Shown: positions 51,636 to 58,345 of the stretch, piece by piece
How positions within the stretch are numbered: position 1 is the first letter of the stretch
Layout: every line of letters starts with the position of its first letter
From: an uncultured bacterium
GTDB taxonomy: Bacteria; Patescibacteriota; JACMRA01
Length of the DNA stretch: 64,000 nucleotides
Assembly (NCBI GenBank): GCA_963784355.1
Contig: CAWAQU010000003.1
Span: 64,001-128,000, forward strand
Direction: 5' to 3'
Position numbers and translations under genes: made by a program
The notes under the pieces: generated by a model
Told to the model about the DNA's origin: nothing
What the model saw: only the letters and a program-made list of their open reading frames with translations
Database searches by the model: none

Positions 51636-52277
51636 TTAATTTTGTGGAACAATTTGCTTGGGGCTAGGTATTTTTTCTACGATTGTTTCAAGTAATTTAT
51701 CAACTCCCAATCCTGTCTTAGCGCTTACATGCAATATTTCATCTCTTGGATAACCTAAAATTCTTTCAATTTCCTCACTTCTAGTTGCAATATCCGCATT
51801 TGGTAAGTCAATTTTATTTAAAACGGGGATAATAGCCAAATCCTGTTCCATTGCTGAGTATAAATTTGCTAGAGTTTGAGCTTGAATACCTTGGGTAGCG
51901 TCTACTACAAGCACCGCGCCTTCACAAGCGGCCAAACTACGGGAAACTTCATAAGAAAAATCCACATGTCCGGGTGTATCTATTAAGTTTAAAACGAAGT
52001 TTTTGCTTTTCCAAGACTCGTATTTTTGGATATCTTCAGTACTCAGATCAATCATTTCATCATTTTCAGCAGTAAACTGATAATTATAATTCATTCTAAC
52101 AGGCTGTAACTTTATTGTGATGCCTCTTTCTCTTTCCAAATCCATTTTATCTAGGGCCTGCTCTTTCATATCACGCATAGTAACAGTGCCAGTAAGCTCC
52201 ATTAATCTGTCGGCTAAAGTACTCTTCCCGTGATCAATATGGGCAATAATACAAAAATTTCTAATAAACTCAAGCAT
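51636..52277 (-). CDS. lepA: Elongation factor 4 (LepA), G-domain only; split or truncated
   Basis: [49 protein letters not shown] and SAK motifs; stops at 213 aa just after IPSP. Confidence 0.9.
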
Positions 52278-54473: not shown

Positions 54474-55019
54474 TCAACTAAACTGATAGCCTTTCAATTG
54501 ATTTTTATGGTTTTTAAAATCAAGATCAAACTTGCCGACCAGATCCCAAAAAGATTTAGAGTGGTTTTTTTCTTTTACATGAGCAAGTTCATGGATTGCC
54601 ACATAGTCTAGTAGCTCAAGTGGCACCAAGGCCAGTCTCCAGTTTAGACTAATCACATTTTTACCGCTACAAGAACCCCAGCGCGTATTAGCACTTGAAA
54701 GACGAAATTTAGTATAATTTAAGTCCATAACTTCTGACCAATGATCCAGTCTAGACTTAAGTAAAACTCTGGCTTTCTTTTTAACTTCAACCTCTTCGCT
54801 TTTAGCAACCCCAAGATTGGGGGCAGTATTTCGCTTTCTTTCTAAAACTCTTTTGATAGTATTTTGTATCCAAATCTGTTTTTTTTGAATAAAATCGTGT
54901 ATGAGATTTAAATTTGCTCTATTGGGTGCCCTTACTATCAATTCCGCATCTTTGGTGATTTGCAGACTGAGAGTTTTGCGTTTTGAGTAAATGATGTTTT
55001 TGGGAGTAATAAGGCTCAT
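54474..55019 (-). CDS. YgjP/DUF45 (M48-like) metallohydrolase
   Basis: SKRKTLSL, VRAP, RWGSCS, LNWRL, HELAH and NHS..FW motifs. Confidence 0.92.
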   Translation of the reverse strand: MSLITPKNIIYSKRKTLSLQITKDAELIVRAPNRANLNLIHDFIQKKQIWIQNTIKRVLERKRNTAPNLGVAKSEEVEVKKKARVLLKSRLDHWSEVMDLNYTKFRLSSANTRWGSCSGKNVISLNWRLALVPLELLDYVAIHELAHVKEKNHSKSFWDLVGKFDLDFKNHKNQLKGYQFS

Positions 55020-58000
55020 TATGATTCTTTTGATTCAAAAAACCTAGCTACATTCCAGATTTTATTTCCAAAATTGCGATATTTTTCACACATTTTGTCC
55101 GCAAGTTTTCCACCGAGTCTAAAATTACGATTTGGAATCATGTTGCTCATCATCGCCAATCTAAGACTATCTGAAGAAAATTTTTCAATCTGATCTTCCA
55201 CATTTAACCCGTTACCTAGGGATTTGCTCATTTTTCGTCCATGCTCGTCTAGAACAGTTGGGTGAATAACTACATTTTGGTAAGGAGTGCTGCCTGTAAA
55301 GTATTTTGAGACCAACATCATGCGCACAATCCATTGGTAAAATATCTCTCTGGCACTAACTAAATCTTTGGTAGAGTAATATGTTTCAAAATCAGTATTT
55401 TTCTGCCCTTGCAGATGGTCTAAATATCCAAGTGTACTAAGCGGCCACAAACAAGAACTAAACCATGTATCTAGTATTTTTGTTTCCTGCATCCAATTTC
55501 CTGGAATTTCAGGTTTTTCCGTACCGATTTGGATTTTTTCTTGGACTGCAGGATCATTTTGCCACTCATTAAAATTATAAAAAATGCGATTTGGATTTTT
55601 TTCTAAATTGTACCACACAGGGAATCGATGACCCCAAACCAGGTCTCTTGAAATACACCAGTCTTTTACACTTTCCAGATAGCTTATTGCTCTGTCTTTA
55701 AACTCTACCGGGTAAAAATTAGTTTCCTCAGCAGCTTGTAAACCGATTTGCTGTAAATTATTGGGTTTCTCAAGCCAAATTACTACAAGACCGTTGCTTT
55801 GAATTTTGTTGTAGTATTGCTCACCAAAAAGATTTTTATAGGTTTCTTTTATATCATTTATGGTATAATTTTCTTGAATTTCGGGTACAATTTGTGTGAA
55901 ATCAAGTTTTACACTTGCAGCTGAATCTAGATTCTGATATGTCTCAACTTTTTTAATGTTAAATTTGTAAATTTTGTTGTTTACTTTATCATTTAATTCT
56001 ATAATATCTCCTGATTTCATATCACCAAAGTATTTGTCTGGTTCTTCAGGATTTAAAGCCCTAGTTTCAACAGATTTTTCTCCTGATAGGATTTTATTTA
56101 AAATATCTAACTGTAGATCATTTCTAAAATTTAAAGACCAGGTTTTAGTATTGCTATCTTCACCAGTACTTTTTACTACAGGATTAGTGTAGCTCAAGAA
56201 GAACTCTTCTGAAATTAGGGGTTCAATAACCGTTTTTGATCTCTCGCAAATTACCACATTATGCTCATAATCCCAATTTATATCCAGTTCTTCACCAATT
56301 AAATCACGTAGAAATTTTATTCCTTCTTTGTATGAGTAGTTTGCTGGATCAAAAGCTTCACTTTTTAGACTTTTGGCTACTTTTTCCCTAATTTTTGCTT
56401 CCTGTTCAATAAATTCGGTTTTTACTGGTACAAATTCTGTTTCTATAAGTTTTTTAATAACTGCTAACCTACCCTGCTCTACCGTCAACCCTTCAAACTC
56501 ACCACAAGCTTCAGTAAGTTTTCCATCTCGATTTATAGGATGCTTAAATCCAAAGCTATACCAACTTTTATTTAAAAATTCTTGATATAATTCATAATCA
56601 AATTGATCACTGGCCGGAGTGATTTTTAATATACCTGTACCAAAATCCGGATCGACTTTTTCAGAAATCAGAAGCCTAATCTTTTTTATATCCAAACTGG
56701 GTAGCTCAAAAGATATACCTAAAAGACCCGTTTTAATTGCTTCAATGGTTTCCAATGCAATTTTTTCATCAAATCCCCCATGGTCTCTTTCAAAAAGATC
56801 TAAGTTAAAGTATTCATAAAATTTACTTGGGTGCATGGCGATTCCAATATCCCCAAAAATTGTCTCCGGCCTAACAGTTGATACTTTTACTCTGGGTAAT
56901 TCAAGAGCGGATTTAATATATTTAGAAGCAAACTCATACAAAAAGGCTTTGTCCGGATTTTTATTTTGATCAAACTCCACCCCACTAAATTTATACTCAA
57001 AAGTAATAAACGGATCCACTCTATTTTCGTACTCAATTTCCCCGGCCACATCACTCACCGCAGTTTGCAGGCCAACGGACCAATTCACCAAATAGCTCCC
57101 TTTGTAAATCAACCCATCTTCCCAGTACTTTTGAAAAGCATAATTTATCATTTTATTAGCTCGCTCGTCTAAAGTAAACAAACTTCTTTGATAGTCCGGA
57201 GTGTCTCCCAAAATAGAACTTTGCATTTTTTGATGATCTCGCCACTCATCCACCTTGGACCAAGCTAAATCAACCCAAAGTTCTCGGTTATTTTGTTTTA
57301 ACCACTTTGGCCAAGTATTTTTTTCAATATCTTTCAATTCAGGTGCTGTTTCTAAGATTTTTTCATCAAAATCACCTTTTTTAATCAATTTATCAATCAC
57401 CCCTTCCAACTGTATTCCGGCATGATCTACTCCCGGATACCATAAGGTTTTTTGAGCTTTTTGTCTGTGAATTCTGGTTAAAGTGTCCATTAAATAGTGT
57501 TGAAAAGCATGTCCTGTATGTAAGGCTCCAGTAAGATTTGGCGGGGGCATTAAAATGCTATAATTCTCGTTAGCACCTACCTCCTTATGTAAAAATTCAA
57601 TTATTTTAGGACTGATTGGGTACATTTTAGTCGCATAAAAGTCATATTTTTCCTGCTCAGATGTAAATTCATTAGTGGTGTGTCCAATTTCATCTGGTAT
57701 AAAGAAAGTAGAATAAGAATTTTCAATTCCAAATATAGGCTTTTCTGTAGCAGTACCCTGTGTGATATGTTCTTCAGTTAATATTTCTCCATTTGGCAAG
57801 GCAATAGCCAGAGCCTGCACCACATACATTTTTCTGTCTTTTCCTTCAAGTTTTTCTAAGGCCTCATGAATTTTTTGCTCGGCAAATCTATCCCTATCTT
57901 CTTTAGACAATGAGTTGAAATATTCATCACTATCTCCAAACATTACTTTTTTACTATCCGTTCCAGGCCAATCTAAAGCTGAAAAGACAAAGCCCCTGTC

Positions 58001-58345
58001 TTGTGAAATTGTGGGTAAATTACTAATTTTAGCATATTCTTTAGCTTTAGTCAGGGCATCCTGTGTAAAACTCTCTCCGGTTTCTTCAACTTCAGGAAAA
58101 TCAATATGTGGTAAATCATTCAAAGTCAGCAGTTCAAAATGCTTATCTAGAGCAAGTTTTTGCCAAGCTAATTTAAAAATTTTAATTTTGTGTTTGTTGG
58201 TAGTTGCAAACAGGACTTTTTTTAATGAAGTCTCTAAATTTTGATTTTTTATTTGAATTTCAGGTGAACCCACTCCATTATTTTGCCAGGTATTATAGAT
58301 ACTTTCTTCAAATTCTTTCGGATTATAGCTGCTAGGCAAAGACAT
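55019..58345 (-). CDS. valS: Valine--tRNA ligase catalytic part with Ham1-like and ASCH-like insertions; no anticodon-binding domain
   Basis: YNPKEFE, MPPPNLTGALHTGHA, PGVDHAGI, TVRPET, DWCISRDLVWGH, LDTWFSS and KMSKSLGN motifs; ends NKIWNVARFFESKES*. Confidence 0.92.
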   Translation of the reverse strand: MSLPSSYNPKEFEESIYNTWQNNGVGSPEIQIKNQNLETSLKKVLFATTNKHKIKIFKLAWQKLALDKHFELLTLNDLPHIDFPEVEETGESFTQDALTKAKEYAKISNLPTISQDRGFVFSALDWPGTDSKKVMFGDSDEYFNSLSKEDRDRFAEQKIHEALEKLEGKDRKMYVVQALAIALPNGEILTEEHITQGTATEKPIFGIENSYSTFFIPDEIGHTTNEFTSEQEKYDFYATKMYPISPKIIEFLHKEVGANENYSILMPPPNLTGALHTGHAFQHYLMDTLTRIHRQKAQKTLWYPGVDHAGIQLEGVIDKLIKKGDFDEKILETAPELKDIEKNTWPKWLKQNNRELWVDLAWSKVDEWRDHQKMQSSILGDTPDYQRSLFTLDERANKMINYAFQKYWEDGLIYKGSYLVNWSVGLQTAVSDVAGEIEYENRVDPFITFEYKFSGVEFDQNKNPDKAFLYEFASKYIKSALELPRVKVSTVRPETIFGDIGIAMHPSKFYEYFNLDLFERDHGGFDEKIALETIEAIKTGLLGISFELPSLDIKKIRLLISEKVDPDFGTGILKITPASDQFDYELYQEFLNKSWYSFGFKHPINRDGKLTEACGEFEGLTVEQGRLAVIKKLIETEFVPVKTEFIEQEAKIREKVAKSLKSEAFDPANYSYKEGIKFLRDLIGEELDINWDYEHNVVICERSKTVIEPLISEEFFLSYTNPVVKSTGEDSNTKTWSLNFRNDLQLDILNKILSGEKSVETRALNPEEPDKYFGDMKSGDIIELNDKVNNKIYKFNIKKVETYQNLDSAASVKLDFTQIVPEIQENYTINDIKETYKNLFGEQYYNKIQSNGLVVIWLEKPNNLQQIGLQAAEETNFYPVEFKDRAISYLESVKDWCISRDLVWGHRFPVWYNLEKNPNRIFYNFNEWQNDPAVQEKIQIGTEKPEIPGNWMQETKILDTWFSSCLWPLSTLGYLDHLQGQKNTDFETYYSTKDLVSAREIFYQWIVRMMLVSKYFTGSTPYQNVVIHPTVLDEHGRKMSKSLGNGLNVEDQIEKFSSDSLRLAMMSNMIPNRNFRLGGKLADKMCEKYRNFGNKIWNVARFFESKES

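Follow-up and report, generated by a model that had tools for sequence, protein, structure and literature searches.

Few aminoacyl-tRNA synthetases are split in nature, and those that are provide evidence that the catalytic and tRNA-recognition modules of these enzymes are separable. Nanoarchaeum equitans has a split AlaRS, and artificially split MetRS and IleRS of Escherichia coli reassemble non-covalently at inter-domain boundaries. Fragmented N. equitans genes are mentioned in a further report (PMC3491384), and the nearest precedent for the case described here is the alpha-beta LeuRS of Aquifex aeolicus, a class Ia enzyme that, according to the report on it (PMC2377443), consists of two natural polypeptides forming a heterodimer and carries its tRNA-binding C-terminal part on the small subunit. 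In this study, we analysed a valyl-tRNA synthetase (ValRS) gene, valS, in a stretch of 64,000 nucleotides from an uncultured bacterium of the Patescibacteriota (JACMRA01; GenBank assembly GCA_963784355.1, contig CAWAQU010000003.1, positions 64,001 to 128,000). This whole stretch, hereafter the window, corresponds to G000:C3:64001-128000 of the source genome G000, a 1.14-Mb assembly in 13 contigs that is 81% complete by markers; genomes, contigs and loci are designated below by G, C and L numbers. The gene in the window ends one helix into the region for the anticodon-binding domain, and the remainder is found on another contig. We propose, with a probability of roughly 85%, that ValRS in this organism is a two-subunit enzyme that is made from two unlinked genes and assembles in trans.

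The gene for the large part, referred to here as the N-part or alpha, lies on the minus strand at 55019..58345 and is an open reading frame (ORF) of 1108 aa. It covers the catalytic Rossmann fold, a presumed editing domain and two inserts, and it closes with the helix that opens the anticodon-binding bundle. The Pfam family tRNA-synt_1 matches residues 258-1067 (E 4.1e-83), and neither Anticodon_1 nor Val_tRNA-synt_C has a Pfam match in the 1108-aa protein. The closest solved structure to its tail is the ValRS 1gax_A (E 1.5e-36), compared with 2.5e-18 for IleRS. The translation contains LHTGHA and KMSKS, the HIGH-type and KMSKS signatures of class I enzymes, as well as DPDFGTGILKITPASD, presumably the ValRS editing-domain motif; as read from the translation, the catalytic and editing motifs appear to be intact. 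The C-terminus reads ...KYRNFGNKIWNVARFFESKES*, with RKMSKSLGN upstream, and the six residues FESKES separate the ARF of ...RNFGNKIWNVARF from the stop. The codons of the last 19 residues, R1090-S1108 (RNFGNKIWNVARFFESKES), occupy 55022..55078 on the minus strand and encode a terminal helix that is predicted to dock into the C-terminal part, plus a short tail. At 55017..55021 (minus strand) the stop codon overlaps the start of the next gene in the letters TAATG, with TAA at 55019-55021 and ATG at 55017-55019 sharing one base, and the minus-strand letters at the junction read ...GAA TCA TAATG AGC. The gene directly downstream (54474..55019, minus strand) encodes a YgjP-like protein of 181 aa (PF01863, E 8.8e-44). 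A preliminary description, made from the sequence, had reported a ValRS ORF that ends six residues past RNFGNKIWNVARF with KMSKS upstream, a stop that overlaps the next start, and a downstream gene that is intact and unrelated to ValRS. The ORF translation and the shared base of the two ORF ends bear this out, and the downstream gene belongs to a metallopeptidase family. The same description placed the break at the start of the anticodon-binding domain, which is correct as to the neighbourhood; the break actually lies one helix further in, in a variable loop after the NKxWNxARF helix.

The suggestion that the C-terminal part is encoded elsewhere was confirmed by a 271-aa ORF, the C-part, which lies outside the window on the minus strand of another contig of the same genome (G000:C9:137779-138591, equal to L002:1141-1956:-). 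Anticodon_1 matches C-part residues 16-152 (E 1.9e-17) and Val_tRNA-synt_C residues 208-257 (E 2.3e-07), the C-part being the sole above-cut-off match to the latter family in G000. Anticodon_1 was found in three places in this genome, namely in a 1224-aa frame on C7 and in frames of 394 and 274 aa on C9. The 274-aa frame holds the C-part ORF, and we read the 1224-aa frame, which also has class Ia catalytic matches, as IleRS. The C-part gene is located inside a 156,681-base contig, where it is flanked by unrelated genes for an LTD-domain protein and an SPFH protein. It has its own ATG, with nine residues including the start Met preceding LSPAS, and opens a few residues ahead of the helix that comes next after this site in fused ValRSs. 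A split intein or trans-splicing was ruled out, since only six residues stand after the N-part helix and nine before LSPASIWIL of the C-part; intein halves measure approximately 100 aa and 35 aa.

The C-terminal 300 residues of the N-part match residues 378-589 of the Thermus thermophilus ValRS 1gax_A, ending at ...NKLYNAARFV, and C-part residues 32-254 align to residues 625-845. As the two align to the same chain, they are best described as one ValRS broken at approximately residue 590-605 in Thermus numbering, a place that we take to be one helix into the helix-bundle anticodon-binding domain, and the two ORFs together cover one ValRS without gap or duplication. The single-chain architecture is absent from G000, in which the anticodon-binding domain and the coiled-coil region are on a separate ORF.

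The preliminary description had also proposed to look for the same split in relatives, and this is where we found it, in 16 of the 26 species genomes of the family and in nine genera. All 26 genomes have a homologue of the C-part, which lies in a frame of 265-329 aa in 16 of them and in a frame of 533-1302 aa in the other 10; by genus, 9 of 18 are split, 9 of 18 are fused and none is mixed. The N-part tail, used as a query, matched 24 of 25 relatives (G004 is the one without a match), and the N-part frame stops 3-19 residues past ARF in G000 and in 11 relatives (G001, G008, G010-G013, G018 and G021-G024). That 11 independently assembled relatives stop so close to the same ARF shows that neither chance nor assembly accounts for the break. 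In the universally conserved N-part helix RNFGNKxWNxxRF, 12 of 12 aligned relatives share the residues R, N, G, N, K, W and N, and in split relatives the C-part frames begin a few residues ahead of the conserved LSPASxWIL helix. In the fused relatives, the very site of the break is taken up by a linker of 1-85 aa, which shows that changes in length are tolerated there.

Homologues of the free-standing C-part are also present in a metagenome protein collection, where 102 matches of 149-475 aa were obtained, with 97 clusters of 259-359 aa. Most of them carry both Pfam domains, and some are encoded on contigs of 147-361 kb, the largest having 360,982 bases. Their database names are 'valyl-tRNA synthetase' at JGI and, in one case, 'class I tRNA ligase family protein [Patescibacteria group bacterium]' at NCBI. 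In an alignment of 62 stand-alone sequences, 16 columns are invariant and 39 nearly so, a sign of purifying selection on the free-standing C-part. Both genes are thus kept under selection across species, with no full-length copy in G000 or in the single-contig G018. Outside the family, we surveyed a phylum sample of 401 genomes, for which the results rest on the 150 matches listed, with 213 further matches unlisted. Among the matches listed, the ValRS-like frames have at least 703 aa, except in G025, G144, G164 and G338. The 437-aa frame of G025, a member of a sister family, is fused at this junction, and the short matches of G164 and G338 lie near contig starts. One row of the sample, G173, belongs to an unpublished genome, and no conclusion here depends on it. 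G144, with a match of 331 aa, was considered as a second lineage with the same split and rejected because its overlapping ORFs of 475 and 324 aa meet inside the Rossmann fold. In G021 there is a second, short C-part-like fragment (L068, G021:C8:2416-2622), which covers query positions 9-77 with 61% identity and one internal TAA; it looks like a remnant duplicate beside the intact copy in a 287-aa frame.

According to the model that we propose, the 1108-aa subunit would perform amino-acid activation, transfer and editing and would end with the first helix of the anticodon-binding bundle, and the 271-aa subunit would provide the remainder of the helix bundle together with the C-terminal coiled-coil tRNA-binding arm. 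The cut between the genes would fall in a loop of naturally variable length, and the terminal helix of the large subunit would insert into the bundle of the small subunit, thereby restoring a ValRS able to read the anticodon of tRNA-Val. When N-part residues 863-1108 were modelled in complex with the C-part, three runs gave a score of 0.80, versus 0.00 for the best of 3 controls; the mark applied to such models is reached by 58 of 80 solved complexes and by 2 of 110 mismatched pairs. Between runs the contacts agree to at least 97%, and the partner pLDDT (predicted local distance difference test) values are at least 87. In the modelled interface, N-part residues 1092-1106 (tail residues 284-298) contact C-part residues 34-96, and in this prediction the helix bundle would be rebuilt across two chains. 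The preliminary claim that the C-part works in trans is supported in this way by the conserved split and by the complex model, the action itself being what we infer, together with the assembly of the subunits and the need for both.

It is conceivable, although unlikely, that the N-part is self-sufficient and anticodon-blind and that the 271-aa protein forms no stable heterodimer with it, acting instead as a separate tRNA-binding or chaperone factor that gives loose help in trans, or serving some other purpose. Such an arrangement would be in line with free-standing tRNA-binding domains of synthetases, which are known in other systems, and the complex proposed here comes from a model rather than from an experiment. 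In addition, G000 has its two halves unlinked, and at least eight relatives (G001, G010, G011, G013, G019, G021, G023 and G024) carry them on separate contigs, so that co-transcription is not obligatory. In G018, G012, G022 and G008, however, they are found on one strand, 1.8-5.3 kb apart. It would also have to be explained why exactly one helix of the bundle has been kept on the N-part and is invariant, and the complex model packs precisely this helix into the C-part. Furthermore, anticodon base A35 is a valine identity determinant, as stated in PMC9976931, and a ValRS should for this reason need the anticodon-binding small subunit.

A second explanation is that the truncated valS is a relic or pseudogene, with a full-length valS left unassembled or with a host supplying Val-tRNA charging. 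Patescibacteria are often host-dependent, and marker completeness leaves room for a missing gene in G000; we regard this explanation as very improbable all the same. The preliminary description had named another valS as one of two possibilities, and none was found: in G000, PF00133 detects only the N-part, IleRS, MetRS and the split LeuRS, with no second ValRS-like catalytic body. The question is answered better by G018 than by the draft genome G000, since G018 consists of one contig of 1.27 Mb. Its sole N-part, in an 843-aa frame, is followed on the same strand after 5.3 kb by its sole C-part, and there is no other valS, the remaining PF00133 matches being IleRS-like, LeuRS-like and MetRS-like frames. 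Both parts are moreover intact ORFs in 16 of 26 species and nine genera, the catalytic motifs are conserved and no disruption of a frame was seen. That the break at 55019 is an artefact of mis-assembly, a chimeric contig or a sequencing error is barely credible, for although only one 36-base piece (55006-55041) of the public reads lies across the junction, 11 other assemblies have the same stop position, in each case with other genes and another spacing downstream, the C-part begins with an ATG of its own in the middle of its contig, there is no room for a split intein, and some 97 stand-alone homologues come from many sources. Even taken together, a relic or an artefact is highly improbable, and the conserved split and the stand-alone clusters, several of them on contigs of more than 100 kb, make both readings untenable.

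Several points nevertheless weigh against a two-subunit enzyme. No Shine-Dalgarno sequence or consensus promoter was identified upstream of the C-part; a scan around it gave 8 promoter-like sites, compared with 5.0 +/- 2.0 in shuffles, none of them convincingly upstream of the ATG, and 0 terminators. The count of N-part ends given above leaves out G019, in which the frame runs off the contig, the incomplete G004 and G015, and G041. As G000 is 81% complete and in 13 contigs, its own lack of another valS is not proof. A search for sequencing runs gave one weak DNA run (share 0.18) and none of RNA; at the junction, the public reads yielded 4 placed short contigs, and the 36-base piece across the stop and start falls below the 31-per-side rule. 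The passing score of the complex model may reflect likeness to solved single-chain ValRS structures and may to that extent not be independent evidence. Action in trans is deduced from conservation and from this predicted complex. Finally, the data neither establish one origin of the split nor clearly rule it out. A quick ValRS tree of 26 rows requires 3 state changes, with 11 of its 23 inner branches open and a poorly resolved backbone, and forcing the split rows into one clade costs 28 log-likelihood units (approximately unbiased test, p-AU 0.0502), so that independent splits or re-fusions must be allowed.

The arrangement of the genes gives some indication of how the split may have arisen. 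The YgjP-like gene stands directly after the N-part in G000, G001, G018 and G022 and between the halves in G012. In G008 the halves are separated instead by a 525-aa ORF, by a gene with a PIN domain and by an ORF whose DUF218 match is sub-threshold (26.3 bits versus a cut-off of 27.6 bits). YgjP as a universal neighbour of valS was rejected, as the gene is on contigs other than that of valS in the 9 fused relatives with a match; the fused relative G005 gave no match to a YgjP homologue. An origin by insertion of a gene into the linker, followed by dispersal of the halves, fits these arrangements and is not proven by them. We tentatively extend this to the possibility, in our view a minority one, that the class Ia synthetase genes of this family are recurrent landing sites for hydrolase modules (Ham1/ITPase, NUDIX, HAD, Ser_hydrolase and YgjP-like). 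A module arriving in frame in a surface loop would become an inserted domain, and one bringing its own stop and start would split the synthetase into subunits. The ValRS split would in this case have begun as a YgjP-like gene, perhaps with neighbours, inserted into the linker, for which the YgjP-like gene that is still between the halves in G018, G022 and G012 can be cited, and the halves would have separated afterwards, perhaps with several origins or some re-fusion along the way. The pattern also suggests that the charging of tRNA may be functionally linked to nucleotide house-cleaning.

Two inserts interrupt the N-part itself. A Ham1-like domain of the ITPase family (57650..58216, minus strand; N-part residues 44-232; PF01725, E 1.1e-19) lies between the N-terminal strand and the HIGH motif; it is also present in the ValRS of G001, of the same genus (E 2.7e-13), and was not found in the N-parts of G018, G022, G008 and G012. 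The second insert, of approximately 130 aa at about residues 720-880 (55706..56188, minus strand), has a weak ASCH match (E 0.0013; 19.8 bits, under the cut-off of 21.2 bits), and has no counterpart in the 1gax_A alignment, which starts at tail residue 66. The N-part of G008 (L058:603-3179) contains an in-frame Ser_hydrolase, or alpha-beta hydrolase, insert at residues 563-705, and many relatives have an insert of variable length at the same site, about tail position 172. The Ser_hydrolase family also occurs as a free gene between the halves of the G000 LeuRS.

This LeuRS is itself split, at a C9 locus outside the window (L069:451-6091). The first ORF (L069:2951-6091, minus strand; 1046 aa) contains four NUDIX stretches and the editing domain and ends with ...RQRYWGEPFPVEYIKKSL*, just past ...RQRYWGEPFPV; the second (L069:451-1620, minus strand; 389 aa) carries KMSKS and Anticodon_1. 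Two unrelated ORFs, one of 166 aa on the opposite strand and a Ser_hydrolase-like one of 192 aa, lie between the two. G001 has the LeuRS split in common with G000, with a 392-aa frame, and G018, G008 and G005 are without it, the result for G010 being ambiguous. LepA (EF4) is divided as well, its N-part of 213 aa in the window (51636-52277, minus strand) having only the GTP_EFTU domain, with a MurT-like gene directly after it, and its C-part of 405 aa with LepA_C being encoded on C6 (L073:610-1827, plus strand). All five relatives examined have the same LepA split, the 405-aa part lying in frames of 406-424 aa. The ORF that follows the LepA C-part (L073:1831-2535, plus strand) has its own ATG and by eye resembles the C-terminal region of DNA polymerase III alpha; from its sequence it could be another split gene. 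Two valS genes that are fused at the linker are broken elsewhere. That of G025 (L059, G025:C25:27500-36500) consists of at least three ValRS-bearing ORFs on one strand with Ham1, HAD and NUDIX ORFs between them, the Ham1 match being partial (profile positions 1-70 of 186). Recoding was rejected in this case, given that the pieces end in a mixture of TAA, TAG and TGA stops and each has its own start codon, with a TAG inside the NUDIX box; the fragmentation could be decay, an assembly error or true multi-fission. In G014 (L070:4476-7412) the break lies upstream of the linker, between ORFs of 444 and 512 aa that are 63 bases apart and cover tRNA-synt_1 positions 2-208 and 203-404, and it is either a real split or a frameshift error.

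No description of a split ValRS was found in the literature, most subscription journals and supplements lying outside the search. The genes are already public under generic names, and the description of a split ValRS is new as far as the literature was searched; a natural split of ValRS, an essential synthetase, is rare. It offers a natural experiment on the way in which a class Ia enzyme links recognition of the anticodon with catalysis and editing when the interface is non-covalent, and one that has been kept over nine genera beside fused sister lineages. It also has practical consequences, as annotation and completeness tools will label the 271-aa gene with the generic name 'class I tRNA ligase family protein' and treat the large one as a truncated valS, and phylogenies that use ValRS as a marker will mis-handle the split lineages. 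Together with the split LeuRS, the split LepA and the hydrolase inserts, the ValRS split points to unusually frequent fission and domain accretion among core translation genes.

When the ValRS described here is set beside solved structures, the closest is that of T. thermophilus (PDB 1gax/1ivs/1iyw, 862 aa), which has the same domain order of catalytic body, helix bundle and coiled coil. It differs in being one polypeptide without the Ham1 and ASCH-like inserts, and its loop at approximately residues 590-605 is replaced in G000 by a stop codon, plus a new start codon elsewhere in the genome. A ValRS piece of similar size to the C-part has been solved alone (PDB 4xkz, 'Valine-tRNA ligase', 269 aa; C-part residues 9-96 align to its residues 37-135, E 2.7e-07), which is consistent with the C-part folding autonomously. 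Judging from the entry title, 4xkz is presumably a laboratory construct from a full-length gene, whereas the C-part is a natural free-standing gene. The split AlaRS of N. equitans and the divided E. coli MetRS and IleRS resemble the present case in being two-piece synthetases, although they are other enzymes and come from other lineages. The Aquifex LeuRS likewise differs in the enzyme and in the site of the cut, and its heterodimer has been proven biochemically, whereas the ValRS pair is predicted. The Aquifex enzyme is cut before KMSKS, inside the catalytic body; in the ValRS studied here the cut comes past the catalytic body, behind the first helix of the anticodon-binding bundle.

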